Assembly: GCA_016196825.1 (NCBI GenBank)
Contig: JACPWY010000055.1
Span: 70 to 64,069 of the forward strand
Length of the DNA: 64,000 bases
Source of the DNA: Deltaproteobacteria bacterium
Lineage (GTDB): Bacteria > Bdellovibrionota > FAC87 > UBA2466
Reading direction: 5' to 3'
Part shown: positions 18,072 to 43,428 of the stretch, in pieces
Layout of the letters: every line of letters starts with the position of its first letter
How positions within the stretch are numbered: the stretch's first letter is position 1
The notes under the pieces: generated by a model
What the model was told of the DNA's origin: nothing
Seen by the model: the letters and a program-made list of their open reading frames with translations, nothing else
Databases searched by the model: none
Program-made: the position numbers and the translations under genes

Positions 18072-18986
18072 CTAGCGCACGCAGACTTTATTGCGGCCGC
18101 TGTTTTTGGCGTCGTAGAGGGCCTTGTCGGCCATGGCGATGAAGGCGTCGGGGCTTTTGCACGTGGAATCCAGACTCACCACCCCCATACTGACCGTGAC
18201 GGGGATCAATTGGCTGTCGTAGAGGAATCGGTGTTTCTCGATAGTCGATCGAATGCGTTCGGCGACCTCGACGGCAATCCTCAACGGCGTCTCGCGAAGT
18301 AATAGCGAGAACTCCTCGCCGCCGTAGCGGCCGAGGGCGTCTTGGCTGCGGATCATTTTGTTTTTGATGATCGCACAGGTCTCTTTCAAGACGAAGTCGC
18401 CCGCGAGGTGGCCGAATTTGTCATTAGTCTGTTTGAAATGATCGAGGTCAAACATGATGAGGCACAATGATAGCTCGCGTGCGAGTGACTTCGAAAACTC
18501 TTCGGCGATGAGCTCTAGGATCGCCTTCTTGTTGAGCGCCTGAGTGAGATCGTCGCGAGTGGCGAGGTCGTACATTTTGTTGTAGTGGATGTTTTCGATC
18601 TTCCCCTCTTTAAGGAATTTCAAGATCGTGTTGCCCGTGCGGATGAGATCGCCATCCTGAAGCACTTTTTTCCCGATCTTCACGTCGTTGACGTAAGTGC
18701 CATTGGTGCTGCCGAGATCGACCACGACGATGCCTTCGTCGGTGACCTTGAATTCGGTGTGCTTCCTCGAAATGGCGGTCTCGGCGATCTGAATGTCAGC
18801 CTCGAGATCGCGGCCCAGGATCATCCCATCGCGGGTGACGAAGAATGATTTGCCGAGTGGACGGCCCGAGATCACAACCAGCACCGGCGCTGAGGACTTC
18901 GCCTCTTCGAGGCGAATCTTCAGCGTATCGCTATCGGCAACCTCGGTTTTATCGATTTCGGGCTTACCGTCTTTTTTGTCGGCCAT
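18072..18986 (-). CDS. FHA-domain diguanylate cyclase (GGDEF)
   Basis: FHA core GRDLEADIQIAETAISRKHTEFKV...VVVDLGSTNGTYVN. GGDEF domain with active-site GGEEF and an I-site RSQD five residues upstream (IRSQDALGRYGGEEF). Confidence 0.9.
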   Translation of the reverse strand: MADKKDGKPEIDKTEVADSDTLKIRLEEAKSSAPVLVVISGRPLGKSFFVTRDGMILGRDLEADIQIAETAISRKHTEFKVTDEGIVVVDLGSTNGTYVNDVKIGKKVLQDGDLIRTGNTILKFLKEGKIENIHYNKMYDLATRDDLTQALNKKAILELIAEEFSKSLARELSLCLIMFDLDHFKQTNDKFGHLAGDFVLKETCAIIKNKMIRSQDALGRYGGEEFSLLLRETPLRIAVEVAERIRSTIEKHRFLYDSQLIPVTVSMGVVSLDSTCKSPDAFIAMADKALYDAKNSGRNKVCVR

Positions 18987-22974: not shown

Positions 22975-24087
22975 ATGTTGAATATGTCTTGGGGGAATTG
23001 GGCGTGGATGGCTGCGGTGTTGTGTTGTCTCTCCGTCTGGGGGGCTTCCCGACAATCCAAGGCCCCGGTTCTGTACGACCTGTCTTCTATTCTTGTGGCT
23101 AATTCTGATTCGATTCCGCTTTTGGGTGGCCGATTCGTGCCACTGCCAAAAATTGTGTTCGACCGGATCCAATTTGTGGATGAACACCCCGATGCCAACT
23201 GGGAGCACGCCGCGCGATTTCGTTTTTTTCTCAAGGGGCGCTTGATTCAAGAGATGCCGACCCGCCTTCCTCCGAAGGGGCTCGATCGAAGGTGGCGAAT
23301 CTCTCCTCCTACGGCCGATGACACGACACCAACCTTCAAGATATCCGGGTTCGACGGAAAGTACCGTGTCAAGGACGCTTCTAAACACTTTGCTCTTCTC
23401 TTCAGTGGAAATGCCGACGATCGGCACTGGAATGACTTTTCATTTCTCTATCGCACGCTGACTCAGGTGTACGGTTACAGCCGCGAAAACATCCTGGTGG
23501 GTGACAGCAACTTCCGGGAGAAGGCCGGGGATCTCGATGGTGACGGCAAGACGGACATTCTATTTGGTTCAACGCTCGCCGATCTTCAGGGGCTCATGAC
23601 CTCGCTGACCGAGCGGATGAAGAAGGGCGATCAGCTCCTGCTCGTCGTCAATGATCACGGGAGCACCAAGGACGGAGAGTCCACTCTGATCCTTGCCGAC
23701 AACGAGATCAAGGCATCGGAATTTGCAGCCCTGATGAAGCCGCTCCCAACCGATCGGGTGCTCTCCGTTTTCGAGCAGTGCTTCAGCGGAGGCTTTGTGA
23801 GGCCGACGGTTGCGGCGGGCCGGGTCTCGGTGGCCGCTTCGACCAACCGGGAGATCAGCTGGGCAAGCGACGACGGCCTCTTTGACGAATTCCTCTACCT
23901 GTTTACTGCTGCCTTCGCACACCAGACTCACGACGGCGTCCCCGCCAATGCCGACCTCGACGGCAACGGCCGCGTGAGCGCTCGCGAAGGCTTCACCTAC
24001 GCCCTCGGCCAGGACGCATCCTCGGAAAGCCCGTTCCTGGAGTCCTACGTCAACACCAACTCAGCCTTCACACTCGGATTTGACTAA
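22975..24087 (+). CDS. secreted clan-CD cysteine peptidase, C13 (legumain/GPI8)-like
   Basis: Signal peptide MSWGNWAWMAAVLCCLSVWGA. Catalytic dyad context LLLVVNDHGS (His-Gly) and VFEQCFSGGF (Cys) occur in the legumain order. Asp-rich loops DLDGDGKTDILFG and DLDGNGRVSAREG look like Ca-binding loops. Confidence 0.7.
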   Translation: MLNMSWGNWAWMAAVLCCLSVWGASRQSKAPVLYDLSSILVANSDSIPLLGGRFVPLPKIVFDRIQFVDEHPDANWEHAARFRFFLKGRLIQEMPTRLPPKGLDRRWRISPPTADDTTPTFKISGFDGKYRVKDASKHFALLFSGNADDRHWNDFSFLYRTLTQVYGYSRENILVGDSNFREKAGDLDGDGKTDILFGSTLADLQGLMTSLTERMKKGDQLLLVVNDHGSTKDGESTLILADNEIKASEFAALMKPLPTDRVLSVFEQCFSGGFVRPTVAAGRVSVAASTNREISWASDDGLFDEFLYLFTAAFAHQTHDGVPANADLDGNGRVSAREGFTYALGQDASSESPFLESYVNTNSAFTLGFD

Positions 24088-26087: not shown

Positions 26088-27260
26088 TCAGGCTGCTTGC
26101 AAGGCTCCTGCCCGAGGCGGGACTGAGGAGACGATCTCTTTCACCCATTGGGTGAGCCCGCTTTCATAGTGTTTCCAGTCGAGAGCGGGGGCTGTTTTTC
26201 GGAGCGTCTCGGCCAGAGCCACCCTTTGCGCGGGATCTCGTATGAGCGCATGGAGGAGCGACTGAATCGCCTCCGCACTAAAAGCGGGCACGACAAATCC
26301 GTTTCGGCCGGTCTGAATTAGCTCCGCCGCTCCACAGTGGTTGGTTACGATGGGAATGAGGCCCGAGGCCATCGCCTGCGGGACGACGGTGGCAAATCCA
26401 TCGTGAATCGAGGGCAAGACGAAAACATCAAAATCGCGGATAAACTGAGCAAGCCTTGAGTGCGGCATCGGTGGAAAATGGGTGTAGTGTCCATAGTGGG
26501 CGAGTGTGTCGGCAAATTCCGGATCGACCGATCCCACCAACGTGAGGGTGAGATCACGGCCAGCCAGTGGCTTCGTGGCCTCAAGGAGATACTTCACCCC
26601 CTTCTGGATCGAAAGAGTTCCGAAATAGATCACCCGCAGTGGGCCGGGGGCCGTTCGCACGGGGCCGGAAGTGAACAGAGAGAGGTCGGCGCCGAGCCCC
26701 AAGACCTTGATCTTTTTCTCGGGGAAACCCTTTTCCAAAAACGTCCGTTTTGCAAATTCAGAGAGCACCAGAATCCGATCGCTCAATGCGTATTCCTTCA
26801 CCTCACGATTGCGGACAAAGGAATGTTCGGGGAAGCGCTGGTTGAATCGACGGTATTCCGCTTCGAGCACCTCGATCTGGAAGTCGATGTGGGCCGAGTC
26901 CCGAATCGTCACATACCGACGAGCATAGCCCTGCTCCATCACCTCGAGTCCAAACGATGACCATGTTAACGAAAGATCACTAGCACGATTGAGCCGCCGA
27001 ATCTCAGCCGCCATGGCCCTGCCAAACGCCGCCATCTTGAGCGCGCCGCCGTAGGCATCAAGCCCCAAAGCCTTCCACCCGCGGAAGAGAATCTCAGGCC
27101 AGAGGAAGGAGTGGACAGCCGCCGCTGGGATTCTCGGGAAGCGGGACTTGGGAAAGGAGGTGAAGAGTTGCGCGTCGAACTGTGCGCGCAGAGCCAAGAC
27201 CATACGATCAGCGTGAAAACGACCGCCAACACCCACATCAATGGAAAAGGGTTGAATCAA
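26088..27260 (-). CDS. glycosyltransferase, GT4 (GT-B fold) family
   Basis: C-terminal nucleotide-sugar binding region VFVLPSIHDGFATVVPQAMASGLIPIVTNHCGAAELIQTGRNGFVVP is typical of the GT4 pattern. Length is 390 aa. Confidence 0.85.
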   Translation of the reverse strand: MIQPFSIDVGVGGRFHADRMVLALRAQFDAQLFTSFPKSRFPRIPAAAVHSFLWPEILFRGWKALGLDAYGGALKMAAFGRAMAAEIRRLNRASDLSLTWSSFGLEVMEQGYARRYVTIRDSAHIDFQIEVLEAEYRRFNQRFPEHSFVRNREVKEYALSDRILVLSEFAKRTFLEKGFPEKKIKVLGLGADLSLFTSGPVRTAPGPLRVIYFGTLSIQKGVKYLLEATKPLAGRDLTLTLVGSVDPEFADTLAHYGHYTHFPPMPHSRLAQFIRDFDVFVLPSIHDGFATVVPQAMASGLIPIVTNHCGAAELIQTGRNGFVVPAFSAEAIQSLLHALIRDPAQRVALAETLRKTAPALDWKHYESGLTQWVKEIVSSVPPRAGALQAA

Positions 27261-27420
27261 ATGGCCTCGGAATTAGGAGTCGGGAGGTTTTGCCTGCTTA
27301 ATAAGAATACCATCCACCCCAAGAGCTCGGCGTCGCGCCGCTTCCCAAGGATTTCGGCGTGTACTTAAGAAACCAGTTATACTGAATTCACGCCTCATCA
27401 CCGCTATTCCGGATAAAACC

Positions 27421-27885
27421 ATGGACAAGAAAACGCCGCCTGAGAGCGAAGTTCAGATAGTTGATCTGCAGCGCTACCGGAAAAACAAGAACGAAGAGCG
27501 ACGACGGGAGTACGAACGCGTGCTCTTCAATCGAATCTTAGGGGTGTATAGCTTCGCGGAGAAAAACTCCCTCAACCATATTGAGGTCATCGATATTAGT
27601 TACTCCGGTCTCAAGTTCCGGGAGGAGAATCCCGAGCGCCCGTTAAAGGCGGAAGAGAAGGTGGCCTTGCGCTTTTATTTCACTCCAAGCTCCTACCTCA
27701 AGGTGATCGTCGATGTGAAACGCGCCATCCCATTCAAAGATGACGATCGCGAGGGGATGGAATACGGCTGCCAACTCGATAAGTCCACAAAGTCCTACGA
27801 AGTCATTCGGGAGCTGATCGCCTTCATGTATAAGTACTCAGAAACAGCGTGTCAGGACACCAACCCGCCCATGATCTGGTTCTAA
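27421..27885 (+). CDS. stand-alone PilZ-domain protein (putative c-di-GMP receptor)
   Basis: RxxxR element (RREYER) followed ~25 aa later by the DxSxxG element (DISYSG). Size is 154 aa. No SD is visible. Confidence 0.75.
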   Translation: MDKKTPPESEVQIVDLQRYRKNKNEERRREYERVLFNRILGVYSFAEKNSLNHIEVIDISYSGLKFREENPERPLKAEEKVALRFYFTPSSYLKVIVDVKRAIPFKDDDREGMEYGCQLDKSTKSYEVIRELIAFMYKYSETACQDTNPPMIWF

Positions 27886-27930
27886 TCCCTCAGCTCAATT
27901 CCGTTACTGCACTGTCCGATAAGAAGGGGA

Positions 27931-30900
27931 ATGTGTGTCTCGGGGAAAAATGTGCGTATTGGGCTGGTTTTGGTGGTTCTTGCCGCCCTGGCCAGCTGCC
28001 GATTCAACATGTCCGACCGATCTCCTTCGGGCGTCAGCTCGGTCACGAGTCCGGCCACCCCCTCCTCAACGACGGCGACCACCGCTGGAGGCGACACCTC
28101 CCTCACCTCGGTAACCGCCGGACCAGCCGTCAAACTGGCGGTCAATGGGCTTCCACCCTTTCAGGCGGGTGTTTGTGCTGGCCCCTTTACGATCACCGCA
28201 ATCGACGCCCACGGGAACGTCGCGACCCCTTCCAACAACACCGAGCTTTTCAAGCTCGAGGGCACCCCGCCCAACGCCATTTTTATTGATGTCAATTGCA
28301 CGGAGCTCGCCCCTGAAGGATCCGTTGTATCGGACTCTTCCGGCACCCGCGCTCTATTCTATGTGAACGGCACTCAAGCCTACTCCAAGGTGATCGCCGT
28401 CAACGGCGCCGGCGTGACGGGAACGTTTGGGATTCAAATCCTCAGTGGCACCCCCACCCGCCTTGAAGTGACTGCGCCAGCCGCCGTGTCGGCAGGCGAT
28501 TGCTTCGCAGGCGCCCTTTCACTCGTTGACAAAAATGGGAACGTCGCCACCGCCACAAAACGATTTTCCGCAGGCGTGCTCATTCATGGGCTTTCCAACG
28601 CCGGAGTTTTTTCTGATCCGCAGTGCTCCCAGCCGCTCGCCACGTTGGATTTCTCGGTGGGGACCTCCTCCCAGCCGTTTCATTTTCTCACACAGTCACC
28701 CGGCACCGGTTCCCTGGCCGCGCAAGCTCCGTCGGGACTGGAAGGAGGAAGCGCCAACCTCACCGTCTTCGTGGAAAATTCACCGCAGCTAGGCCTCATC
28801 CCTCCCCCGGGCCAGATGGTGGCCGGGCTATGTTCGGCATTTCGAATCGTTTCACTCGACACCGCCGGAAACACTCTGGTGACCCACAACGGCCTCCCCG
28901 TCACAGTGAGTTCCAAAACGAGCCAGCTCGTTCTCTTCTCCGATGCGGCGTGTTCCACTCCTCTCAATCCCGCCACAGTGACGCTTGCCGCGGAATCATC
29001 GACCAATCAATTTTTTGCCCGCAGCGAGCTTGCCCACACGGGGCAGGTGGCGGTCAGCGCCAGTGGGTATCTCTCTGCGACCGTCGCCCCCATTGTCGCG
29101 CCGGCCCCCGCAGTCTCTCTGTCGCTCGATTCTCTGCCCGACTCACTCACCATGGGCGGATGCATGACAGCTGTTGTGCGTTCCAAAGATCCGTTTGGAA
29201 ACGTATCGACCGTCCCGGTCGGTGTGCCGATCCTGATTTCCGGCTCAGGCACTGCCGCGACGGGAACCAATTTCTACGCCGGCGGCTCCTGCACGACCTC
29301 CGCCACCAAACAATTCACACTCGGCAATGGGTCCTCCCTCGCAGCCTTTTCATTCTCGCCTGGGAGCCCAGGGGCACTCACCATCACGCTCACCCCGAGC
29401 GGTCTCACCGGAAGTGGTGGAGCCACATCCACATCCGGCACTACGACGATCGCCCCCTCCCCCACTGTGCGCCTCTCGCTGAGCTCTTCGACAAGCGCCA
29501 TCATTGCGGGCCTCTGCGCCAAAATGTCTCTCTCAACCATCGACGCAGCCGGGACGGTAACGATGGCCCCCATCGACACCTCGGTCACTCTCTCAAATGA
29601 TCAGAGTCTGCAACCACTCTTTTTCTCGGACGCGTCGTGCTCCTCGGCCACATCCAATCTGATCGTGAGATCGGGGACGTCTTCCGCCGATTTTTACATT
29701 CAAAGCACAAAGATCAATGCAATCGTTGTCTCGGCCCAAGGGACCGATTCCACTGGAAAAGCGATCTCGACCTCAAAGGGAGTCGCCATCGTTGCAGCTG
29801 CGCCCTCTACGTTAAGCATCGGCTCGCTCGGAAGCGCCCCATCAGGAAAACTGTGCCTCGGCCCTGTCGCGGTCGACACCCTCGATCAATTCCGCAATCC
29901 AGCGATCGTTCCGAAGACCACATCATTCGCGCTGGAATCAACGGGAGCCGTCGAATTGCAATTCTCATCAAACTCGACCTGCTCTGACTCCATTAGCTCC
30001 CTCACGATCCCGGCGGGAAAAGGTGAAGGTGTCTTTTACGCCAAGGCCCAATCGGGAGGGGCGGTCTCATTTTCTATTTTGGGGGGAGACCTCCAGGGCT
30101 CGGGCGGCACCACGCTCAGCGATCCCCCCGCGCTGCACCTTGTGCTGGCAGGACCCTCATCGGCCTCAGCCACCGTCGGCACCTGCGTGGCCTTTCAGGT
30201 CGGGAGTGTCGACCCCACAAACACTCCTAAGATCTTTGATCCTAATACGATCACGGTCGGGGTCACTCCCACGACAAATGCAGTGTTTTTCTCGGACAGC
30301 AGCTGTGCAACGGGGCTGCCAAACAATCAAGTGACCATCAGCCCGGCGCTCAACCCCGCGCCTTTCTACTTCAAGTTCACGACGGCCCAGTCAATGACCA
30401 TCTCGGCCAACGGATCACTGAATTCACAGGGGGCGGGAAGCCAGCTTACGCTCACGCCAGCCAACCCTTCCCAGATTGTCTTGTCACCGATGGGTGCGGG
30501 CACCTTTTCGGCCTCGACTTGCGCGGGTCCCTATTCGGCTGAGGCGCAGGATAGTTTCGGTAACTCATCACCTGTGCGCTCAACGCTGCCATTCACTTTT
30601 CAACCCACGGGCGTGTCGGCCAGCTTCTACTCCGATGCGGCGTGCTCGACTTCAGGAGCGGCCATCGCAGCAGGCAAAACGTCCGGCCTTTTCTATATGA
30701 AGGGAGCCGAACCAGGGTCGCTCACCGTCTCAGTGGGCGCAACGTCGCTGCATAGCTCCTGGCGGATCTTCACCGTCGCAGCCGATGGCGCAGTGAAGCT
30801 CACGTTGCTCGGGCAACCGGTGACTCAGGCCTCATTCGGGTCGGTGAGCCAGGGGCAGACATCATCCCTCATCTTCACTCTGACCAATAGTTCGACCAGG

Positions 30901-33900
30901 ACGGCGGCGAGTAAAATCGCGGTGACGGTGAGCAGCAGCTCCTTTTCCGCCGCGCTTTCAACCGCACCCGCCGGTTGCAGCACCCTCACCGATCTCAAGC
31001 TAGCGCCGGGCCAACAGTGTGGATTCGGGGTCCTCTTCACCGCCAACAGCCAGGGCGCTGCCTCGGGATCACTCGACTACACCTTTTCGATGGGAGGCGC
31101 TTCTCAATCACAGTCGGTCTCTCTTTCCGGAACTGGCACCACCCCGCTCGCTGCAGTCCTCACAGCGTCTGCGCAGTCGATCGACTTTGGCATGCTCATG
31201 GCCGGCCAAACGACCAAACAGCATGTGACAGTGACCAATTCCGGAACTAGGGACGCCTCACAGATATCGCTCAGTGGAGTATCTGCTCCCTTCTCGGCCA
31301 GTTTTGAAAGCGGGTGCGCAACTCTAGCCCCGGGATCCGCATGTGACCTCACCCTCGCCGCTGCCCCCTCCACCTCGGGCAGCGCACAACAGACGCTCGT
31401 GATCGACTACTCCGATGGAACGGATCACACACCCAACCCTTCGACGGTGAGCCTCAAAGAGACGTCGAACCTACCAGCGGTACTGCAGGTCTCGAACTCA
31501 TCGCTTTCATTTCCAGCCACGGTCGTAAAGGGAACCTCCGGTGCGCAGACGCTGACAGTTACCAACATGGGAAGTCTTCCGGCCACGGAAGTCAGCTATT
31601 CCCTCTCCGGCTCGGCCTTCTCACTCAACAGCTCGAGCTGCCCGGCCACCCTGGATGCGTTCACGAGCTGCGCACTTTCGATCACCTTTAACCCAACCGC
31701 GCTGGGTTCCTTTTCGGACGTCCTCTCCATCAGTTACACGAGCTACGCTCAAGCCAAGGCCACCACCGTGGCGATCGTTTCCGGGGATTCGACTTCGCCT
31801 CCCCACTTGATCTTTAACCCCGCGCTGGGGACATTCGCTCCCACCGCCATCAACAAGGCAGCACCATCGGTCAGTCTACTCCTTACAAACTCCGGTAATG
31901 GCGATGCCCAAGGGATCACGCTTGCAACCTCCGCCCCTTTCTCCGTGAACTCCACCGAGTGCAGCATGCTCAACGCCGGACAATCGTGTTTCGTTAAGGT
32001 CGGTTTCACTCCGACTGCCGCGGGGTCCTTCTCGAGCACGCTCACGGCCAACTGCTCTAATGCTACGCTTGGGTGCGCGGCCACCACCGCCTCCCTCACT
32101 GGCAGCACGTTGCCTCAATCCTCCCTCACCCTGAGCGCAACCCAGCTCTCCTTTGGCCTCTTAACGATCGGCCAGACGATGACCGAGACCATTACGCTCA
32201 GCAACAGTGGCGCCTTAGGAAATCCCGCGATCCAACTCTCGACGCCGCAGCTGGGAGGCTCCAATTCGGCAGCGGCTCTGGCTCTCACTCATAGTTGCGG
32301 CACCACCCTGGCGAGCGGATCAAGTTGCACGGTTTCCGTCACCTTTAGTCCAACGAACGCCGGAACCTTTGACAACACTCTCGATATCGTTTGGAGCTCC
32401 GGCAACGGCCTCACTACATCAACCGTTGGTCTTTCCGCGTCAGCCCTCTCCGCGGCAAACGTCACGCTCTCTCCGGCAACGTCCAATTTTCCTGACACAG
32501 TTGTCGGTAATACGTCACAAGCAATCGCAGTCACCGTCTCTAATGGCGGTCAGAGCAGCGCGAAGGACATTGTGATTTCAGGCCCAACCTCGGTGTTCAT
32601 CCGCTCCGCCGCCACCTGCCCGCCCGAACCTTTCGCGCTCGCTGCTGGTGCCAATTGCACCGTTAGCTACACCTTTACCCCACCCGGTATAGGAAAGACG
32701 ACCCACTCCTTCGGAGGCACCTTTGCTGGCACTTCCGGCGCAACGAGTATCGGAAACATTTCTTTCTCCGGCACCGGCATTGCAACCGCCTCACTTGTCG
32801 TTGATGAAACATCTCTGAACTTCCCTCCCACATCCGTTGGAAAAAGCTCACAAGCGAGTCTTGTTTTCACGAACACCGGAAATGGTCCCGCCTCCCAAAT
32901 CAATTTAGCCAACAATCTCGCAAGTCCCTACTTTCTTTCGGGCCCGCTTTGCTCGTCGCTCGCTGCTGGAGCCCAATGCACCGTCACCATCACCTTCACC
33001 CCGGTTGCGATTGGCACATTTCCGAGTAACGTTCAGGTGCAATACTCCGACGGATCCACCCTCCAGAAAACTTCGAGCATCTCCCTCACGGGGACAACCG
33101 GCGGAAAGGTGAACGCGACCCCCTCGACTGTGAGTTTCTCCAACGTTGTCGTCGGGCAGACCAATCATCAAGATGTAACGATCACTAACAATGGCGCGGT
33201 CAGCCTATCCTTTTTGGCGGCAGGCATCGATCCGAACAGCAGCCCTGGCTTCAGCGTCAATCCAGGTGCTTGTGGGACGCTGTCAGTTGGACAATCATGC
33301 GAAATCGTTTTTAGCTTAAGTCCCAACGCTGTCTCGAACTCACTCAGCGGTTCCTCAACCGTGCGATTTTCCGACAGCGTCGGAAACGTTGTAACCGCGC
33401 CCCCCATTGCACTTTCCGGCACCTCCGTGGGACTCGCCAAGCTCACGGTCGCTCCCCAATCGCTGACATTCAGCGACACTGTCATCGGAACACAGTCCGC
33501 CACCCAAACTCTCACGATCACCAATACCGGTGTCGGTCAGGCCACAAAGATCGCGCCAGCGCTTCCAGCCGATTTTCTCAACTCAGGGGGAAGCTGCGGG
33601 GCAAGTCCCTTCTCCCTCTCACCCAATGCCCAATGCACCATTTCTCTCATCTTCAAGCCAACAGCGGCTGAGGACCTTTCCCAGGCCATCACCGGGACTT
33701 ACTCTAACGGAGTTGCCGATGACATCTTCAGCTTTGACGTGAGGGGAAATGGCCAAACACCCGGCAATCTTATGCTCTCAGTGGCTAGCTTAGATTTCGG
33801 TTCGATTGCTCTGGGCACGACCTCGCCGTTAAGAAGTGTCACTGTCTCCAACACCGGAGGGTCGGCCGCGACCCAAATCACAATCCTCAATCTCTCCCCG

Positions 33901-36900
33901 CCCTTTAAAAACCCCTCTTCGAGTTGCGGCGCTCAACCCTTTGCCCTTGCGGCTGGATCGAGTTGTGAGCTCGACTACGCATTCAATCCGACCTCGGCAG
34001 GCAATTCCACGGAAAAACTCGCGGTAAACTATAGCAACGGAGTCGGGAGCGGAACTCAGCGCAGCCTCAATCTCTCAGGTACGGGGATGGGAGGCAGTTT
34101 CTCCGCCCTGCCCAACCCACTCAATTTCAACAACACGCTCCTCGGCCAGACCGGCAACCTTTCGGTTACCGTCACCAACACTGGAGCGACCAACCTGAAT
34201 TTCGCCGGCGCCGGAATCAATACTGGAAGCGGCGCCGGCTACAGCATCGCGAATGGCAACTGCGGATCGCTTTCTACCGGGGCCACCTGCTCACTGACCT
34301 ACTCCTTCACTCCCACGGCCATCTCTAGCTCCTTCAGCGGATCCTCCACGATCCAGTTCACCGATAACATGGACAACGCAGTGTCGCAGGTGTTGCCCCT
34401 TTCCGCATCGTCTTCGGGGGTCGGCCTTCTCTCCTCTTCGAAAGCATCATTGAGCTTCGGCGATGTCACCGTGGGCAGTTCATCGGCCGCGCAAACGTTC
34501 ACGGTTACCAATATCGGCTCGGGCCCGGCGACCCAAATCTCGTGGAGCGGCCCATCGCCCGATTTTGTGGTCAACTATGGTTCGTGTGGCTCCAATGCCT
34601 CTCTTGCGGCGGGGGCCCAATGCACCGTCAGCCTCTCGCTGAAGCCCGCAGCGCCGGGAACTTTCAATCAAACCCTCACGGTTGGCTATTCCGACGGACA
34701 AACAACAACCACGGCAAACATGGTGACCGTCTCGGGAAGAGGCCTCGGCCCCGCCAATTTGGCTCTTTCACCCTCATCTCTCGATTTCAGTGGCATTGCG
34801 GTCGGTGCCACTTCTCCCACGAAGTTGGTGACGATCACAAACAGCGGCTCGGCCACTGCTTCGAACATTCTTCTCAACCCCACTCTCTCAGGCAATAGTT
34901 TCACCAAGGTCAGCTCCACCTGCGGGAACGAGCCCTTCGTTCTCGCCGCGGGGACAAATTGCCAAATCAATCTCGCCTTTTCGCCGGCGGTCGCGGGATC
35001 GGCCTCGCAGATCTATAGCGTGAGCTATTCCGATAGCGTTTCTCAACAAAGTGGCAGCACTCTGACGTTGAACGGAACCGGAATCGAGGCGGCCGTCCTC
35101 ACCACAAATCTGTCGAATGTTGTTTTCCCCTACACCGCTCTCGGTCAATCCTCGAGCGCAACGGTTGTCCTGACCAACGCGGGCGGAACCGATGCCACGC
35201 AAATCGCCCTGTCACCTTCCACGCTTCCAGCCCATTTCAGTTATGGGAACAGCACCTGCGACAGCACTCTGTCACCCGGCGCGACCTGCAGTCTCACCCT
35301 CAACTTCATTCCCAAAGTGAGCGGCACCTTCACGGCGTCTCTGCAGATCACTTACAATAATGGCACCCCCACGACGCCAACTCCGCCCTCCATAAGCTTA
35401 ACGGGAACTACCGCCGGCGCGTATTCCCTCACGACGGCCTCACTCGACTTCGGAGCAGTCCCAGTCGGGTCGAGCAAGAATCTCTCCCTGACCGTGACAA
35501 ATATCGGGGCTCCAACAATTACCTCCTCAACCCCAACGATGGACACCGGCTCCGATGCCGCCTTTCGGTTGATCAACTCGACATGCTCGACGCTCGCATC
35601 CGGGCAAAACTGTTTAATCACATATTCATTTCAGCCCACGACTGCGATGACGAACGCCGGAGGCGCCTCCACGCTGGCCTTCACCAATCCCGACAATAGC
35701 CCGCTCCCTTCCACTCAGGTGAGAATGACTGCTTCAGCCCCCGGTGTCGCGAGAATCACCGCCTCTCCGTCTACTCTGGCCTTTGGCCCCATCGCGGTGA
35801 ATGGCTCCTCCAGCCCCCAAACGCTCACTCTCACCAATGCCGGCACGGGCCCAGCCACCCAGCTCGCCTGGAGCGGGGTAACGAACGACTTTTCTATTGC
35901 CTTTAGCACTTGTCCCAATGGCTCCGCGCTTTCAGTCGGCGCGCAGTGCACGATTTCTGTCACTTTTAGACCAACATCAGCCGCCACATTCTCCCAATCC
36001 CTGGCACTCAGCTATTTCGATGGCACGGCCAATAGCAATCTCATCGCCTCTACACTCACGGGGCAGGGAGTGGGTGCGGGAGTGATGGCCTTAAGTCCTC
36101 TGAGCCTTGATTTCGGAAGCGTACTGGTGGGACAGACGAAAGCGCTCAATTTTGCGATCACGAACACGGGTACTGGTCCCATCACCAATGTTCAATTTTC
36201 ATCACCCGTCGCTTTGCCCTTTGCGACGGGCTCGTTGTGTTCATCCATTCAGCCGGGTGCCAGTTGCCAACTGAGCACGGCCTTTCTTCCGTCTGCGGCC
36301 GGAACCTTTCAGGCCACGGGCCAGCTCAGTTATTACGACGGCGCCTCAGCCCAGCTCTCGCCGGCGTTCACGCTCTCAGGGCACACCGGACCAGCTTTTA
36401 GGTTCAGTCCGACATCACTCAGTTTTGGAAACGTTGCCTATGGGACAACCTCGACGGCGCAGGCCATCACGATCACCAACACCGGCGGCACTTCCATTAA
36501 GCTGAATACCATTCTCTTCGACGGACAAAACTCTCCTCAAAATGGGTTCAGACTAGTCACCAGCAATTGCGGCACAACCCTCTCCCCAAACGGGATCTGC
36601 ACACTCTCGGCCACTTTCACTCCGGCGGCGGCCAACTCGGGTTACTCCTCCGTCTGGACAATCAGCTTCGTTGATGCCGTGACAAGTAGTAATCCCATCT
36701 CCGGGTCAATCATTCTGAGCGGTTCAGGCACGTCACCAGGAGCACTCTCAGCCAACCCAGCCTCTTTCTCCTATGGTACGGTGTCGCTCGGTTCAACAGC
36801 CAACACCACGATAGTCATTTCAAACCCAGGTGGAACATCGACTCTGATCACGGGGGTCACGGCTCTGGCGAGCCCTTTCAGGGCAGTCAATCAATGCACT

Positions 36901-39474
36901 GGGATTGCGTTGGCGCCGTCGGGCACCTGCCTCGTTCAGATCGCGTTCACCCCTTTGAGTGGAACCACGAGCTCCTGGCAGCAAAACTTGATCGTGAGCG
37001 GTCAGGCCGGTTCCACGCCCGTGAGCGTTTCGGTCCCGATCAGCGGCAACACCACCTCGGTCGGAGCTCTGAGATTTTCTCCCGCCTCGGTCGCCTTCCC
37101 GGCGACCGCGCTCAATTCGTTCGCGACCATGAACGTCTCCCTTTCCAACACCGGGGGAACGGCGATCACCTTGGGTGCTCTTCCGACGCTCACCCCTCCC
37201 TATTCGGTGAATGCAGCCAACTGCTCCGGAATCACACTTCTGCCCGGCTCAAACTGCACGCTCATCATTACGTTCACGCCGGTGAGCGGAGCGACGAATT
37301 TCAATCAGACTCTCACGGTGGCAGGCACCTCCGGGGGTGTTCCGCTTTCCGCCTCGCTCCCGGTGAGTGGATCAACATTATCCTCCGGTGTTCTCACACC
37401 GTCGGCCAGTACGTACAACTTTGGTTCACTCCTGGCGGGACAGACCCGCACCTCCACGATCACTTGGACAAATACGGGAGGCGCCTCGCTCACAGCCACT
37501 TCGGCATCAGGTCTCTCCAGTCCCTTCACCCTCACCGCCAACAACTGCCTGAACGTGACACTGCAGGCGGGGATGAGCTGCTCGACCACGGTCACGTTCA
37601 CATCGCCCGGCGGGGCCGACATGGCGTGGAGCCAAGTTCTTAGACTCGCGTACGCGACGGCGGGAACCTCCGCCACATCGTCAGTTACTTACATTGCCGC
37701 GGCGTCCGCTACTCCCGGGACATTCACCCCAAGCCCGACAAGCTATAACTTTGGCACGATTAGCTCCGGCACATCGAGGAGCGTAAACATCACGTGGACT
37801 AACACCGGTGGCGCCACATCTCAGGCCCTCTCCTTCACGGGCTACTCGGCGCCCATCACGCTGACTTCAGACGGGTGCACGGGAAGGGCGCTCGCGGTCG
37901 GCGGCTCCTGCACCACGATGTTTACATTCAGCCCCACAACCGGGGGCCCGAGCTTCACCCGCACGGTGATCGCGCAATATACAACCAACGGGGCGGTTTT
38001 ATCGTCGAGCATTACCCTGGCAGGATCCATCGCTGCTCTTCCCGGCACGCTCACCGCAAGCCCGACAAGTTACAACTTTGGAAGTTTGCCCCCAGGAGGC
38101 ACCGGCTCCTCGACGGTGACCTGGACCAACACGGGCGGGTCGAGCCTCACTATCGCACCTGCGACAGGCATTTCGAGTCCGTTCACTCTGACTTCCAATT
38201 CATGCTCGGCTGCCACTCTTCTTCCAGGAGCGAGGTGCAGCACAACGGTCATATTCACGGCGCCTTTCGGGACGACCACCTCGTGGAACCAGATTCTAAG
38301 GCTCTCCTACTCGACGAACGGAGCTTCCGCGTCCACTTCGGTGGCATACTACGCCGCCACTACCGCCCCGCCGGGGACGCTCACGCCCAACACAGCCTCC
38401 TACAATTTCGGGTCGGTCAGCGTCGGCTCCGCCGTCCGCCAATGTTTCACCGAGACAAATACTGGTGGGGCCGCCATTACACTGCCGGCCGTTCCACGCA
38501 CGCTCTCCATCGCCGGCGGCTTCAATATTGTCGTCGACTCCTGCATCGGATCATCCCTGCAACCGAGCCAATCGTGTCAGGTGTGTCTCTCCTTTGCGCC
38601 GACAATCGCGGGCACCATGACCGCAACCTTCTCAGAAACTTTCACAAATACCGATGGCACCAACACGCGATCGGGCGGCACTATTAAGCTGATGGGAAAC
38701 GGCGTGGCACCCTCACCCTCCCCCACTCCCACCTATGGCTTCCTCCGCATCACTCCGACCCAATACAATTTTCCGGCCACCGCCGTGAATTATTCCAAGC
38801 TCCAAGTGTTCACTGTCACCAACACGGGCTCTGGCCCTGCCACCATCAACAATGTCCAGTACGGGGAGAATCCGGGGTGGCCGCAAAAGGCAATCGTCTA
38901 TAGCACCAACTGCTGTTCTGGTCTCAACACAACCACCGGGGCATGCACCCCCACAAACCTCAACCCTTACAGCTCTTGCACCGTCTCCCTCAATTTCTTG
39001 CCCAATATCTACATGATTCTGTCCAACTATGCCTTCACGGTCACCACGAACCTGATGGGGGTAGGTGGACTCTATAGTGGCCAATCCGTAATGGTCCAGG
39101 GCTCCATGGGGGTACTTTCGAATCCGCCGACCTCGGGAGCCCGGTGGTTCGCCACGTCCGGATCGACGACACTCCATGCTGCCGTGGGCGCTCAATCCGC
39201 CGCCACCACGGTCGTGCTTCAATCATTTTCGACGACGGCCAGAGCACCAACGATACCGGGTGTCGGCCCCGGATTCATGAGTCTCTCCGCCAACTACATC
39301 AATAGCCCGTTTCTGCTCACAAGCTCGTGCCCCATTGGGGGTAGCGTCGGGAGTTGTTACGCGACCGTCCGTTGCACACCTCGGGCCACCGGCTCGGTCA
39401 CTCTCCCGCTGACGGCGACCTTCAGTGACGGCACCCCCACGGCCACCCTCCCCTTCACCTGTGCCTCCCCTTAA
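27931..39474 (+). CDS. giant (3,847 aa) surface lipoprotein with tandem Ig-like and choice-of-anchor-D/HYDIN-like (PapD-like) repeats
   Basis: Single uninterrupted 11,544-nt frame. Purine-rich AAGAAGGGGA (27921-27930) abuts the ATG. Signal peptide plus lipobox ..VVLAALASC (Cys23), then a Ser/Thr/Pro linker and two repeat arrays (listed as separate features). Composition is Ser/Thr/Gly/Ala-rich. Confidence 0.9.
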   Translation: MCVSGKNVRIGLVLVVLAALASCRFNMSDRSPSGVSSVTSPATPSSTTATTAGGDTSLTSVTAGPAVKLAVNGLPPFQAGVCAGPFTITAIDAHGNVATPSNNTELFKLEGTPPNAIFIDVNCTELAPEGSVVSDSSGTRALFYVNGTQAYSKVIAVNGAGVTGTFGIQILSGTPTRLEVTAPAAVSAGDCFAGALSLVDKNGNVATATKRFSAGVLIHGLSNAGVFSDPQCSQPLATLDFSVGTSSQPFHFLTQSPGTGSLAAQAPSGLEGGSANLTVFVENSPQLGLIPPPGQMVAGLCSAFRIVSLDTAGNTLVTHNGLPVTVSSKTSQLVLFSDAACSTPLNPATVTLAAESSTNQFFARSELAHTGQVAVSASGYLSATVAPIVAPAPAVSLSLDSLPDSLTMGGCMTAVVRSKDPFGNVSTVPVGVPILISGSGTAATGTNFYAGGSCTTSATKQFTLGNGSSLAAFSFSPGSPGALTITLTPSGLTGSGGATSTSGTTTIAPSPTVRLSLSSSTSAIIAGLCAKMSLSTIDAAGTVTMAPIDTSVTLSNDQSLQPLFFSDASCSSATSNLIVRSGTSSADFYIQSTKINAIVVSAQGTDSTGKAISTSKGVAIVAAAPSTLSIGSLGSAPSGKLCLGPVAVDTLDQFRNPAIVPKTTSFALESTGAVELQFSSNSTCSDSISSLTIPAGKGEGVFYAKAQSGGAVSFSILGGDLQGSGGTTLSDPPALHLVLAGPSSASATVGTCVAFQVGSVDPTNTPKIFDPNTITVGVTPTTNAVFFSDSSCATGLPNNQVTISPALNPAPFYFKFTTAQSMTISANGSLNSQGAGSQLTLTPANPSQIVLSPMGAGTFSASTCAGPYSAEAQDSFGNSSPVRSTLPFTFQPTGVSASFYSDAACSTSGAAIAAGKTSGLFYMKGAEPGSLTVSVGATSLHSSWRIFTVAADGAVKLTLLGQPVTQASFGSVSQGQTSSLIFTLTNSSTRTAASKIAVTVSSSSFSAALSTAPAGCSTLTDLKLAPGQQCGFGVLFTANSQGAASGSLDYTFSMGGASQSQSVSLSGTGTTPLAAVLTASAQSIDFGMLMAGQTTKQHVTVTNSGTRDASQISLSGVSAPFSASFESGCATLAPGSACDLTLAAAPSTSGSAQQTLVIDYSDGTDHTPNPSTVSLKETSNLPAVLQVSNSSLSFPATVVKGTSGAQTLTVTNMGSLPATEVSYSLSGSAFSLNSSSCPATLDAFTSCALSITFNPTALGSFSDVLSISYTSYAQAKATTVAIVSGDSTSPPHLIFNPALGTFAPTAINKAAPSVSLLLTNSGNGDAQGITLATSAPFSVNSTECSMLNAGQSCFVKVGFTPTAAGSFSSTLTANCSNATLGCAATTASLTGSTLPQSSLTLSATQLSFGLLTIGQTMTETITLSNSGALGNPAIQLSTPQLGGSNSAAALALTHSCGTTLASGSSCTVSVTFSPTNAGTFDNTLDIVWSSGNGLTTSTVGLSASALSAANVTLSPATSNFPDTVVGNTSQAIAVTVSNGGQSSAKDIVISGPTSVFIRSAATCPPEPFALAAGANCTVSYTFTPPGIGKTTHSFGGTFAGTSGATSIGNISFSGTGIATASLVVDETSLNFPPTSVGKSSQASLVFTNTGNGPASQINLANNLASPYFLSGPLCSSLAAGAQCTVTITFTPVAIGTFPSNVQVQYSDGSTLQKTSSISLTGTTGGKVNATPSTVSFSNVVVGQTNHQDVTITNNGAVSLSFLAAGIDPNSSPGFSVNPGACGTLSVGQSCEIVFSLSPNAVSNSLSGSSTVRFSDSVGNVVTAPPIALSGTSVGLAKLTVAPQSLTFSDTVIGTQSATQTLTITNTGVGQATKIAPALPADFLNSGGSCGASPFSLSPNAQCTISLIFKPTAAEDLSQAITGTYSNGVADDIFSFDVRGNGQTPGNLMLSVASLDFGSIALGTTSPLRSVTVSNTGGSAATQITILNLSPPFKNPSSSCGAQPFALAAGSSCELDYAFNPTSAGNSTEKLAVNYSNGVGSGTQRSLNLSGTGMGGSFSALPNPLNFNNTLLGQTGNLSVTVTNTGATNLNFAGAGINTGSGAGYSIANGNCGSLSTGATCSLTYSFTPTAISSSFSGSSTIQFTDNMDNAVSQVLPLSASSSGVGLLSSSKASLSFGDVTVGSSSAAQTFTVTNIGSGPATQISWSGPSPDFVVNYGSCGSNASLAAGAQCTVSLSLKPAAPGTFNQTLTVGYSDGQTTTTANMVTVSGRGLGPANLALSPSSLDFSGIAVGATSPTKLVTITNSGSATASNILLNPTLSGNSFTKVSSTCGNEPFVLAAGTNCQINLAFSPAVAGSASQIYSVSYSDSVSQQSGSTLTLNGTGIEAAVLTTNLSNVVFPYTALGQSSSATVVLTNAGGTDATQIALSPSTLPAHFSYGNSTCDSTLSPGATCSLTLNFIPKVSGTFTASLQITYNNGTPTTPTPPSISLTGTTAGAYSLTTASLDFGAVPVGSSKNLSLTVTNIGAPTITSSTPTMDTGSDAAFRLINSTCSTLASGQNCLITYSFQPTTAMTNAGGASTLAFTNPDNSPLPSTQVRMTASAPGVARITASPSTLAFGPIAVNGSSSPQTLTLTNAGTGPATQLAWSGVTNDFSIAFSTCPNGSALSVGAQCTISVTFRPTSAATFSQSLALSYFDGTANSNLIASTLTGQGVGAGVMALSPLSLDFGSVLVGQTKALNFAITNTGTGPITNVQFSSPVALPFATGSLCSSIQPGASCQLSTAFLPSAAGTFQATGQLSYYDGASAQLSPAFTLSGHTGPAFRFSPTSLSFGNVAYGTTSTAQAITITNTGGTSIKLNTILFDGQNSPQNGFRLVTSNCGTTLSPNGICTLSATFTPAAANSGYSSVWTISFVDAVTSSNPISGSIILSGSGTSPGALSANPASFSYGTVSLGSTANTTIVISNPGGTSTLITGVTALASPFRAVNQCTGIALAPSGTCLVQIAFTPLSGTTSSWQQNLIVSGQAGSTPVSVSVPISGNTTSVGALRFSPASVAFPATALNSFATMNVSLSNTGGTAITLGALPTLTPPYSVNAANCSGITLLPGSNCTLIITFTPVSGATNFNQTLTVAGTSGGVPLSASLPVSGSTLSSGVLTPSASTYNFGSLLAGQTRTSTITWTNTGGASLTATSASGLSSPFTLTANNCLNVTLQAGMSCSTTVTFTSPGGADMAWSQVLRLAYATAGTSATSSVTYIAAASATPGTFTPSPTSYNFGTISSGTSRSVNITWTNTGGATSQALSFTGYSAPITLTSDGCTGRALAVGGSCTTMFTFSPTTGGPSFTRTVIAQYTTNGAVLSSSITLAGSIAALPGTLTASPTSYNFGSLPPGGTGSSTVTWTNTGGSSLTIAPATGISSPFTLTSNSCSAATLLPGARCSTTVIFTAPFGTTTSWNQILRLSYSTNGASASTSVAYYAATTAPPGTLTPNTASYNFGSVSVGSAVRQCFTETNTGGAAITLPAVPRTLSIAGGFNIVVDSCIGSSLQPSQSCQVCLSFAPTIAGTMTATFSETFTNTDGTNTRSGGTIKLMGNGVAPSPSPTPTYGFLRITPTQYNFPATAVNYSKLQVFTVTNTGSGPATINNVQYGENPGWPQKAIVYSTNCCSGLNTTTGACTPTNLNPYSSCTVSLNFLPNIYMILSNYAFTVTTNLMGVGGLYSGQSVMVQGSMGVLSNPPTSGARWFATSGSTTLHAAVGAQSAATTVVLQSFSTTARAPTIPGVGPGFMSLSANYINSPFLLTSSCPIGGSVGSCYATVRCTPRATGSVTLPLTATFSDGTPTATLPFTCASP
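28117..30780 (+). repeat. array of 8 tandem ~105-aa Ig-like modules (in-frame protein repeats)
   Basis: Each module has the G-x-C...D/S-x-x-G-N-(V/T) start: AGVCAGPFTITAIDAHGNV, AGDCFAGALSLVDKNGNV, AGLCSAFRIVSLDTAGNT, GGCMTAVVRSKDPFGNV, AGLCAKMSLSTIDAAGTV, GKLCLGPVAVDTLDQFRNP, GTCVAFQVGSVDPTNTP, STCAGPYSAEAQDSFGNS. Each also has a second Cys in an F-(S/Y)-(S/D)-x-x-C-S motif. Confidence 0.8.
30781..39470 (+). repeat. array of ~25 tandem ~95-105-aa choice-of-anchor-D/HYDIN-like modules (in-frame protein repeats)
   Basis: Recurrent pattern L-x-F-(G/P)-x-(V/T)-x-V-G...(T/S)-(V/I)-T-N-(T/S)-G...(F/Y)...C...L-x-x-G-x-x-C...(F)-x-P...G. I counted 25 'TN.G'-type cores, from FTLTNSS to FTVTNTGSGPA, plus a degenerate terminal copy. 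Confidence 0.8.
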
Positions 39475-40280: not shown

Positions 40281-40574
40281 TCACTTTCGAAAGGGCGGAA
40301 TCACGAGTGGCTTGGGCTCGAGGGCTGCGGGTTGGTTGGCGCGAACGGACGGCGCCGCGGGTGGAAACTCCAGTATCACGCGAAATGTTTGACCGTTTCG
40401 TCGACAGGTCATCTCGACGGCGTCCCCGGGCCCTACCCCGATGAGCGCGCGCTCCAGATCGAGGCGGTCGCGCACCGCAATGCCTCGCACTTCCTTTTGA
40501 GGAAGTCCGACTGGTCGACGAGTGGCAATTTTTGGAATAAGCTGGATCTCTTTGCGACGCAGCGTAGCAAGCAC
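40281..40574 (-). CDS. hypothetical protein (weak call)
   Basis: 97-aa ORF upstream of and co-oriented with rnhA. Only 16 nt separate it from the divergent mmsA start. I recognise no motif with confidence. Confidence 0.3.
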   Translation of the reverse strand: MLATLRRKEIQLIPKIATRRPVGLPQKEVRGIAVRDRLDLERALIGVGPGDAVEMTCRRNGQTFRVILEFPPAAPSVRANQPAALEPKPLVIPPFRK

Positions 40575-40590
40575 AGTTTTAGGGGGAGTT

Positions 40591-42039
40591 ATGGTCCGAA
40601 ATTACATTGATGGTCGTTGGGTTGATTCGACGGGGCGGGAATCTGTCGACATCATCAACCCCGCCACCGAAGAGGTGCTCGACAAATGTCCACTCGGTAC
40701 AGCCGAGGATGTAAACCGCGCGGTAGCGGCCGCCCAAGCGGCCTTTCCCGCCTGGCGCCAGACGCCGGTCATCGATCGCGTCCAGTATCTTTTCAAACTC
40801 AAAAGCCTGCTCGAGGCCACCTTCGACGAAATCGTCGCCCTCAATACCGCTGAACACGGCAAGACACTGGTCGAATCGCGCGGCGACGTCCGCCGCGGTA
40901 TCCAGATGGTGGAAACTGCCTGCGGCATGCCGAGCCTCATGATGGGCCAATGCTCCGAAGACGTAGCAGCGGGTATCGACTCGATGAGCGTGCGCCAGCC
41001 GATGGGAGTCTTCGCCGCCATCACGCCGTTTAATTTTCCAGCGATGGTTCCCTTTTGGTTTTGGCCATTCGCCATCGCGAGCGGCAACACATTCGTCCTC
41101 AAACCTTCCGAGCGCGTGCCACTCACCCAAGTTAAAATCTTTGGCCTCCTAGAAAAGACCGGCCTACCCAAAGGCGTGATGAATCTGGTCGCGGGCAGCA
41201 AGGATGTGGTCAATGCACTCTGCACTCACCCCGATGTGAAGGGCGTCTCGTTCGTCGGCTCAACTCCGGTCGCGAAACACGTCTACCAAACCGGCACGTC
41301 GCACGGAAAAAGGGTCCAGGCCCTGGGCGGCGCGAAAAATTTCATGGTGATCCTCCCCGACGCCGCGATGGACACCTCCATCAGCACCTGCCTCGAATCG
41401 ATCATCGGCTGCGCCGGGCAGAGGTGCCTCGCAGGCTCCGTGATCATCTCGGTCGGCGATTGCGCCAAGACGGTGAGCGATCGCATCGTACGGCTCGCCA
41501 GCGATGTGCGCATAGGCAACGGCGCCGACCCGCAAACCCACATGGGGCCCGTGATCTCGCGCTCTTCGCTAGAACGGATCCACGGCCTCATCCAATCTGC
41601 GGCCCTTGACGGCGCGCAGATTCTCCTCGATGGCCGGCAGACCGCAGGCCGCGGCTATTTCTTAAAACCCACGGTCATCGCGGGCGTGACTCCCAAGATG
41701 CGCATCGCCCAGGAGGAGATCTTTGGCCCGGTCGTCTGCCTGGCGAACACCGACTCGCTCGCAAGCGCCATCCAGTGGATCAACTCGTCGCCGTTTGCCA
41801 ACACGGCTTCCCTTTTCACCAACTCAGGCGCAGCGGCCCGACAGTTCAGCTACGAGGCGGCCCCGGCCATGTTAGGCCTCAACATTGGGGTCCCGGCCCC
41901 GATGGCCTATTACTCCTTTGGCGGCGCGAAAGATTCCTTTTTTGGTGACGTGAAGGCGCACGGAGCACAGGGCGTGCTCTTCTTCACCGATCAGAAGGTC
42001 ACCATCTCGCGCTGGAAGAAGAACTCAAACATCTGGTGA
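40591..42039 (+). CDS. mmsA: CoA-acylating methylmalonate/malonate-semialdehyde dehydrogenase
   Basis: Track ORF trimmed to ATG 40591 (AGGGGGAG upstream). N-terminus MVRNYIDGRWVDS. Catalytic Cys context GCAGQRCLAGS. C-terminus FFTDQKVTISRW. All are typical of MMSDH. Confidence 0.9.
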   Translation: MVRNYIDGRWVDSTGRESVDIINPATEEVLDKCPLGTAEDVNRAVAAAQAAFPAWRQTPVIDRVQYLFKLKSLLEATFDEIVALNTAEHGKTLVESRGDVRRGIQMVETACGMPSLMMGQCSEDVAAGIDSMSVRQPMGVFAAITPFNFPAMVPFWFWPFAIASGNTFVLKPSERVPLTQVKIFGLLEKTGLPKGVMNLVAGSKDVVNALCTHPDVKGVSFVGSTPVAKHVYQTGTSHGKRVQALGGAKNFMVILPDAAMDTSISTCLESIIGCAGQRCLAGSVIISVGDCAKTVSDRIVRLASDVRIGNGADPQTHMGPVISRSSLERIHGLIQSAALDGAQILLDGRQTAGRGYFLKPTVIAGVTPKMRIAQEEIFGPVVCLANTDSLASAIQWINSSPFANTASLFTNSGAAARQFSYEAAPAMLGLNIGVPAPMAYYSFGGAKDSFFGDVKAHGAQGVLFFTDQKVTISRWKKNSNIW

Positions 42040-42043
42040 GACC

Positions 42044-43426: not shown

Positions 43427-43428
43427 AA

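Follow-up and report, generated by a model that had tools for sequence, protein, structure and literature searches.

The locus described here raises the question of whether two genes in close tandem, one for a small PilZ protein and one for a giant lipoprotein, form a dedicated signalling module or are neighbours by history. The pair lies within a 64,000-nt stretch of DNA from a Deltaproteobacteria bacterium of the Bdellovibrionota (GenBank assembly GCA_016196825.1, contig JACPWY010000055.1), which we refer to, at its full length, as the window. PilZ domains bind cyclic di-GMP (c-di-GMP), and a first-pass annotation of the sequence had proposed that the two genes may constitute a c-di-GMP-responsive module controlling the display or function of a giant lipid-anchored surface array. 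Based on domain identities, architecture, phylogenetic distribution and genomic contexts, we lean toward a different reading, in which the PilZ protein and the giant would have independent functions and their juxtaposition would be historical, possibly co-transcribed and specific to one shallow subclade. Coordinates of the individual features are collected in Table 1.

We began with the identity of the upstream gene product, in which the first-pass annotation had recognized both PilZ sequence elements. The Pfam PilZ profile (PF07238) matches residues 28-134 of this 154-aa protein, corresponding to profile positions 2-101 of 102, at 31.6 bits (E = 2.2e-7; gathering score 22.5), and the two elements, R29-E-Y-E-R33 (RxxxR) and D58-I-S60-Y-S-G63 (DxSxxG), are intact and invariant in an alignment of 20 orthologs. 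An AlphaFold2 (AF2) model with a moderate mean predicted local distance difference test (pLDDT) score of 72 contains one barrel (residues 44-119, block pLDDT 75-93) with one helix on its N-terminal and a long one on its C-terminal side, RxxxR located on the basic N-terminal helix and D58xS60xxG63 on the beta-barrel. When this model was compared with the PDB using Foldseek, the top matches were exclusively PilZ domains (MrkH, VCA0042, a Xanthomonas PilZ, MapZ/PA4608, PlzA and BcsA), and a profile of the PilZ family found no match at E <= 1 among PDB sequences. The protein, which presumably binds c-di-GMP through these two motifs, has no signal peptide and by that token is cytoplasmic. Its C-terminal tail (ACQDxNPPMIWF; aa 135-154, window 27823-27882) is nearly invariant family-wide and is modelled with low confidence; this tail is likely a partner-docking peptide, and as such a handle for finding the effector.

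Next, we examined how this PilZ protein is distributed and in what genomic company it is usually found. Its homologs fall into 171 clusters, all approximately 155 aa long and 62-92% identical, and an alignment of 20 diverse members shows no variation in the binding motifs, in much of the barrel or in the C-terminal tail. The window protein is orthologous to a stand-alone receptor that is highly conserved in the Pseudobdellovibrionaceae, and the organisms carrying its orthologs point to an uncultured member of that family as the source of the window. To describe its context we used one genome per GTDB species, which yielded 34 loci, 28 of them with enough upstream sequence. The same-strand genes directly upstream of PilZ are ugd (UDP-glucose dehydrogenase) in 27/34 loci and a gene for a UXS-like epimerase in 29/34, which is almost every locus that reaches far enough upstream, with a Wzy_C gene between this epimerase and PilZ in 9 loci. 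A glycosyltransferase family 4 (GT4) gene is located at most 10 kb from PilZ in 14/34 loci, and a convergent trio downstream (a ~250-aa unknown protein, a HAD hydrolase and a TetR protein) recurs in 19-25 of the 34. None of the window's neighbour genes recurs at these 34 species-level loci. The giant is likewise missing from them: tblastn with the giant over 10 kb on either side of 45 PilZ loci found no similarity, and hidden Markov models (HMMs) of its modules, applied to six-frame translations of the 34 species loci, found no giant-like gene within 10 kb, with the positive controls (loci L047-L050 and L053) all being detected by these HMMs. We additionally observed, approximately 3-5 kb downstream of most PilZ orthologs, a conserved trio comprising an Aminotran_1_2 enzyme, a ~350-aa GNAT-like protein and an NAD-dependent epimerase/reductase (e.g., L001 14109-17634, L003 13246-16686 and L011 13948-17322; 18-23/34 species loci), which may resemble the bacterial ceramide-synthesis set (Spt, bCerS, CerR).

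Adjacency of PilZ and a giant gene does occur among the closest relatives. At locus L046, the PilZ protein is 92% identical to that of the window, the same divergent GT4 gene lies upstream and the spacer aligns to the same GAATGTGTG start; the contig stops 21 nt into the ORF (open reading frame) after PilZ, such that adjacency to a giant is probable there. At L049, L050 and L051, which derive from three samples, PilZ is 80% identical and is followed after 170 nt by a same-strand ORF that runs off the contig. The giant encoded at L049/L050 aligns gap-free and module for module with residues 61-387 of the window's giant (modules 1-3), at 42% identity across 327 aa, and the signal-peptide Cys23 and the Arg24 that follows it are invariant in these orthologs. 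At L008 and L012, where PilZ is 88% identical, a convergent DEAD-box helicase gene lies 20 nt after PilZ and both flanks are unlike those of the window. Two further contigs end close to the gene, that of L052 just after PilZ and that of P0004 44 nt after it. The first-pass annotation had proposed synteny as a test, and on this point the evidence divides: the pair is retained where an ortholog of the giant is visible in close relatives, and the usual PilZ context (ugd-UXS-(Wzy_C)-PilZ) comes without a giant.

A neighbor-joining tree of the PilZ proteins places the window and all of these relatives in one subclade, with L049 basal and L008/L012 sister to the window and L046. Giant-linked PilZ genes are both basal (L049) and nested (window), a topology that fits one juxtaposition and at least one loss, and the simplest history would be that PilZ moved once to a place ahead of the giant gene, an arrangement kept in at least two lineages and lost in one. 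The subclade has few PilZ substitutions of its own, all of them conservative (I/V/L, Q/E), and only three positions, in the variable N-terminus, consistently set the three giant-linked PilZ proteins apart from the unlinked one of L012; nothing here points to a new function. We also considered whether the giant-linked PilZ might be a neo-functionalized paralog, and rejected this on the grounds that the substitutions are conservative only and that just one locus turned up in the metagenome-assembled genome L012 from the same subclade.

The second gene of the pair encodes a lipoprotein of exceptional size, the outline of which had been read from the sequence at the outset: the 45-nt gap, the Shine-Dalgarno-like tract and the lipobox at Cys23 all agree with the coordinates and the translation. 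Its N-terminus, MCVSGKNVRIGLVLVVLAALAS-C23, matches the lipobox consensus [LVI][ASTVI][GAS]C and has a positively charged n-region and a hydrophobic h-region. The giant is presumably exported by Sec, with lipidation at Cys23 and disulfide bonds. HMMs that we derived from its own sequence by iteration yield 8 'A' modules and 25 'B' modules, in agreement with the first estimate. The B modules had been assigned to the choice-of-anchor-D / ASH-HYDIN type, and the NCBIfam choice_anch_D model (NF012200) indeed scores 814.4 bits against a cut-off of 45, in 25 stretches, with HYDIN_VesB_CFA65-like_Ig, ASH and Cep192_D4 as the Pfam labels for the same region. For the A modules, no Pfam or NCBIfam model matches. 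Their alignment exhibits invariant C17 and C58, and structure prediction of a single module, which had been suggested as a check, returned an immunoglobulin (Ig)-like sandwich (AF2 pLDDT 76) whose Foldseek matches, a resemblance of fold only, are GH2 Ig-like, S-layer SbsC, macroglobulin and intimin domains with template modelling (TM) scores of 0.55-0.6. The C-terminal tail after the last B module looks like a degenerate 26th module.

We also asked whether so long and repetitive an ORF might be an assembly artefact or contain collapsed repeats. Mean pairwise identity between modules is 23% (A) and 29% (B), self-blastn of the gene reveals essentially no DNA-level repeats, and an identical 3,847-aa product with the same flanks was recovered in two independent run-level assemblies (SRR12113416 and SRR12113417). 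Given this divergence of the modules, the near absence of DNA repeats and the agreement of the two assemblies, we conclude that the ORF is real and rule out the artefact. Every module contains 2 Cys, a few of them 3-4; Ser and Thr make up 29.5% of the protein, acidic residues are very few, and searches against Pfam and NCBIfam gave no PEP-CTERM, LPXTG, T9SS or RTX match at E <= 0.1. With a length of roughly 4 nm per Ig-like domain, the approximately 34 domains of the giant would form a fibre of well over 100 nm, and since such a fibre is too long for the periplasm, it is probably displayed at the surface as an adhesin or spacer.

The giant belongs to a wider family that can be followed independently of PilZ. 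Word-indexed protein search proved unreliable for a sequence so rich in Ser, Thr, Ala and Gly, missing even the self-match of a protein that is on record, and we discarded its negative results. An exhaustive HMMER scan with residues 1-950 identified 546 representative proteins, of which 114 reach E <= 1e-30; lengths of 2,000-6,000 aa are common among these A-module relatives, with a maximum of 6,027 aa (P0124-P0272), such that the A module is widespread and a candidate new domain family. Several relatives are collinear with the whole 60-949 region of the giant at the same N-terminal offset, and a lipobox-like signal is present in 81 of 128 full-length relatives. Behind the base of eight A modules, P0133 carries 16 choice-of-anchor-D modules and P0136 carries 10, and P0147 and P0166 keep the same base and continue with choice-of-anchor-Z repeats, which suggests a family plan of a conserved lipid-anchored 8xA base and an exchangeable distal array of choice-of-anchor-D or -Z type. 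Metagenome scans with the window/L049 and P0133/P0136/P0142 alignments found no confirmed relatives. The locus of P0133 (L053, 14.6 kb) contains no PilZ gene anywhere. It does contain a trypsin-like protease gene, a second, convergent giant paralog (10853-14629, minus strand) and a 270-aa ORF (557-1369, minus strand) whose product has a signal peptide and a C-terminal VGYSF and resembles a small outer-membrane beta-barrel. This last protein might help to export or anchor such lipoproteins; we recognized no equivalent of it in the window.

Turning to the linkage between the two genes, a promoter and terminator scan of the 45-nt spacer found no terminator-like hairpin and no sigma-70-like promoter, and no Rfam family, c-di-GMP riboswitches included, matched within 26900-28300. 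Since the gap is only 45 nt and lacks a terminator, PilZ and the giant gene may be co-transcribed in the window. The spacer is 111 nt in L046 and 170 nt in L049, compared with 45 nt in the window.

Taken together, we propose that PilZ was ancestrally the last gene of a string encoding UDP-glucose dehydrogenase, a UXS-like epimerase and, in some loci, Wzy_C, and that it came to lie ahead of the giant gene in an ancestor of the window's subclade. The protein most likely retains its ancestral, giant-independent role, in which it would act as a single-domain adaptor and use its conserved C-terminal helix and tail to relay the c-di-GMP signal to a partner in the cytoplasm. The giant, for its part, would be processed by Sec, Lgt and Lsp and would consist of a lipid anchor, a Ser/Thr tether, a disulfide-containing 8xA base and 25-26 distal choice-of-anchor-D modules, yielding a fibre of more than 100 nm that would serve as an envelope adhesin or spacer of a Bdellovibrio-like cell. 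Because PilZ is cytoplasmic and the mature giant wholly extracytoplasmic, the two cannot touch, and any specific link would therefore need to engage the pre-protein and the machinery that processes it, or else come into play at transcription or translation.

Some observations weigh against this account of independence. The two genes stand on one strand with no predicted terminator in the short gap between them, and their adjacency has persisted while the N-terminus of the giant diverged to 42% identity. It was also kept despite turnover of the gene upstream of PilZ, which within the subclade is a GT4 gene (window and L046), small ORFs (L012) or a LysR-type gene (L052); this retention would also fit selection for the pair, and provides modest evidence for an operon. 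The context of a distant giant relative was seen at one locus only (L053), and, as the survey covered loci, the PilZ family may have a relation in trans to unlinked giants in other species. On the other side, the retained pair could be inertia, because gene order around PilZ is stable beyond the divergence of window and L049, and some PilZ gene beside a surface-protein gene is to be expected by chance given that a Bdellovibrio genome carries from 15 to more than 18 PilZ genes (PMC3271064, PMC6733907).

The facts of strand, gap and retained adjacency are also what favours a dedicated c-di-GMP module, that is, an operon in which PilZ, possibly fed by a nearby cyclase, controls transcription, translation, targeting, lipidation or export of the giant such that display of the fibre follows the predatory state. 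Such a module has precedents in MrkH, encoded beside the mrk fimbrial operon, and in Bd1482, at the head of a gliding operon (PMC3271064), and a homolog of the cyclase DgcB is encoded in the same window. This is the FHA-GGDEF gene that the first-pass annotation had named as a possible signal source. A full-length alignment (E = 1e-63, residues 33-301) pairs its product with PDB 6HBZ, the Bdellovibrio bacteriovorus DgcB (Bd0742), a cyclase needed for prey entry (PMC6733907). The type of the gene is therefore as had been proposed; its position speaks less for a role as signal source, as it lies 9 kb from PilZ on the other strand, flanked by PGI and AAA_14 ATPase genes rather than signalling genes and with acyl-CoA dehydrogenase genes also near. 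The proposed control of the giant fares similarly: adjacency in L049/L050, and probably in L046, agrees with it, and its absence from L008/L012, where PilZ is intact, from the 34 other species and from the locus of P0133, a giant of the same architecture, does not. Moreover, the window PilZ shows no modification relative to its orthologs, which lack a giant neighbour in those 34 species, it is a single 154-aa domain without the extra DNA-binding N-terminal domain of MrkH, no portion of the mature giant lies in the cytoplasm, and the genes nearby encode no transmembrane relay. What the locus itself offers for a specific PilZ-giant link is adjacency alone, and we consider a dedicated module unlikely. 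We are more doubtful still of the specific scenario in which PilZ was captured, in one lineage of Bdellovibrio-like predators, as operon leader for the >100-nm Ig fibre and would couple a DgcB-type predatory c-di-GMP signal to fibre production or export, before or during Sec/Lol handling and independently of Lap proteins and of a type I secretion system (T1SS).

A third explanation takes glycans as the common theme, with the PilZ family regulating an envelope-glycan pathway (UDP-glucuronate/UDP-xylose, a Wzy_C-type ligase or O-oligosaccharyltransferase, and GT4) and with the giant as a glycosylated client of that pathway. Such a theme would account for the position of PilZ between a GT4 gene and the giant here and beside ugd, UXS and Wzy_C genes elsewhere, and the recurrence of ugd and the UXS-like epimerase directly upstream of PilZ, of Wzy_C in 9 species and of GT4 in 14/34 loci, the divergent GT4 of window and L046, and the high Ser and Thr content of the giant all point in its direction. 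We confirmed the divergent GT4 that had been noted initially. Its counterpart in L046, the closest relative, is 79% identical at the amino-acid level; no ortholog of it stands near PilZ in the other loci compared, and we rejected the idea that it is the GT4 recurring near PilZ elsewhere, for want of orthology. The window ORFs that we scanned include none for Wzy_C, ugd or UXS, Ig-like repeat adhesins are ordinarily rich in Ser and Thr, and there is no evidence of glycosylation. We regard this explanation as very improbable, and return to functional independence of the two genes as the reading that we favour.

LapA of Pseudomonas fluorescens is a T1SS substrate with RTX repeats. An N-terminal plug retains it, and the periplasmic protease LapG, itself under the control of LapD, a transmembrane degenerate GGDEF-EAL receptor of c-di-GMP, sets it free. 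The likeness to the pair described here lies in the concept of a cytoplasmic c-di-GMP signal combined with a giant repeat adhesin; the giant differs by its Sec/lipoprotein signal, its lack of RTX repeats and its very few acidic residues, and the candidate receptor is a soluble PilZ protein. We surveyed the window with Pfam using 47 larger ORFs, hand-picked as likely genes (mostly >=100 aa at 13.5-49 kb and >=150 aa elsewhere), and found no LapD, no LapG/BTLCP-type protease, no T1SS component (ABC, HlyD, OEP) and no transmembrane c-di-GMP receptor among them, in line with the first-pass annotation, which had seen none. The sole GGDEF protein in this set is the soluble FHA-GGDEF protein, which reaches 24.7 bits against a LapD cut-off of 1020. 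We therefore rejected a Lap-type system, whose defining features were tested and are absent from the giant and from the ORFs scanned.

Closer to the PilZ protein itself, the transcriptional activator MrkH of Klebsiella pneumoniae is the best structural match of the AF2 model, at the level of fold only (TM ~0.5, 17% identity, ~105 residues aligned), and its gene, too, has an adhesive surface structure encoded next to it (the mrk type 3 fimbrial operon). MrkH, however, has two domains in chains of 219-232 aa, with an N-terminal domain for DNA binding that the single-domain window protein lacks. MapZ/PA4608 of Pseudomonas aeruginosa is of similar size, consists of a single barrel with a C-terminal helix and binds a cytoplasmic partner, and by analogy the window PilZ most likely acts as a MapZ-like single-domain adaptor on a cytoplasmic partner. 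Sequence kinship between the two is not detectable beyond the PilZ motifs, and the ACQDxNPPMIWF tail is specific to the Bdellovibrionota family. Among proteins of the choice-of-anchor-D type (NF012200), the 25 modules of the giant score far above the curated cut-off, but the giant is anchored by an N-terminal lipobox instead of a C-terminal sorting signal and adds a second type of array. Within the same phylum, the PilZ gene Bd1482 of Bdellovibrio bacteriovorus HD100 stands at the 5' end of a gliding-motility operon and has been proposed, though not shown, to receive the signal of a specific cyclase (PMC3271064); it is a precedent for a PilZ gene heading an operon for an envelope or surface machine, with different machinery downstream. 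Our literature searches found no described pair of a PilZ protein and a giant lipoprotein.

Table 1. Features of the PilZ-giant locus and of its surroundings, with positions given in window coordinates
Feature	Position	Strand	Description
FHA-GGDEF gene	18072..18986	-	DgcB homolog; 9 kb from PilZ, opposite strand
GT4 glycosyltransferase	26088..27260	-	Divergent from PilZ; Pfam Glycos_transf_1, 83 bits
Stand-alone single-domain PilZ gene	27421..27885	+	154 aa; Pfam, motifs, AF2 model
PilZ-giant spacer, 45 nt	27886..27930	+	Holds purine-rich Shine-Dalgarno-like tract AAGAAGGGGA directly before ATG
Giant lipoprotein ORF	27931..39474	+	3,847 aa
Lipoprotein signal peptide, aa 1-23	27931..27999	+	K6 and R9 in n-region, hydrophobic core, lipobox L-A-S-C with Cys23
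Ser/Thr/Pro-rich low-complexity tether, aa 24-65	28000..28125	+	Between lipid anchor and module 1; from translation and composition
8 'A' modules, aa 66-948, ~110 aa each	28126..30774	+	Own HMM iteration; Ig-like beta-sandwich, 2 invariant Cys
25 choice-of-anchor-D (ASH/HYDIN/PapD-like Ig) 'B' modules, aa 951-3704	30781..39042	+	NCBIfam, Pfam, own HMM
C-terminal tail, 143 aa	39043..39474	+	4 Cys, then stop; from sequence

Beyond the features listed in Table 1, the window is occupied mostly by housekeeping and catabolic genes, such as those for MutL, MiaA, RelA/SpoT, guanylate kinase, PGI and two acyl-CoA dehydrogenases, and an RNase HI gene is convergent with the giant gene. We also observed a complete-looking reductive pyrimidine-catabolism cluster (40522-49061, plus strand; Pfam), comprising genes for an aldehyde dehydrogenase, a dihydropyrimidinase-like amidohydrolase, a CN-hydrolase (beta-ureidopropionase-like), a class-III aminotransferase, a DHO_dh-4Fe4S protein (dihydropyrimidine dehydrogenase-like) and a cytosine/uracil permease, as well as a kynurenine/3-hydroxyanthranilate cluster (55423-61376, minus strand) with an FAD monooxygenase, a kynureninase, an ACMSD-like amidohydrolase, a 3-hydroxyanthranilate dioxygenase and an aldehyde dehydrogenase. 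Two tandem subtilisin-like (S8) protease genes are followed by an ORF of 1,219 aa that matches no Pfam or NCBIfam model (2014-8623, plus strand). Finally, a secreted protein of 370 aa (22975-24087, plus strand) has a weak FG-GAP match only, and its NDHGS and EQCFSGGF motifs recall, on a reading of the sequence, the His-Cys dyad of clan CD (caspase/legumain-like).

If the pair were functional as a unit, it would represent a second c-di-GMP route to the control of a giant adhesin, mechanistically unrelated to LapADG, and, for predatory bacteria with their many orphan PilZ proteins, would supply a receptor matched to its output. On the reading that we favour, the locus is instead a worked example of how a tight gene pair, even one common to close relatives, need not be a module. 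In either case, these findings define a highly conserved stand-alone PilZ family of the Pseudobdellovibrionaceae, for which the UDP-sugar neighbours are a better lead to the partner than the giant, and a large, unannotated family of modular giant lipoproteins that are plausible prey- or surface-contact fibres.

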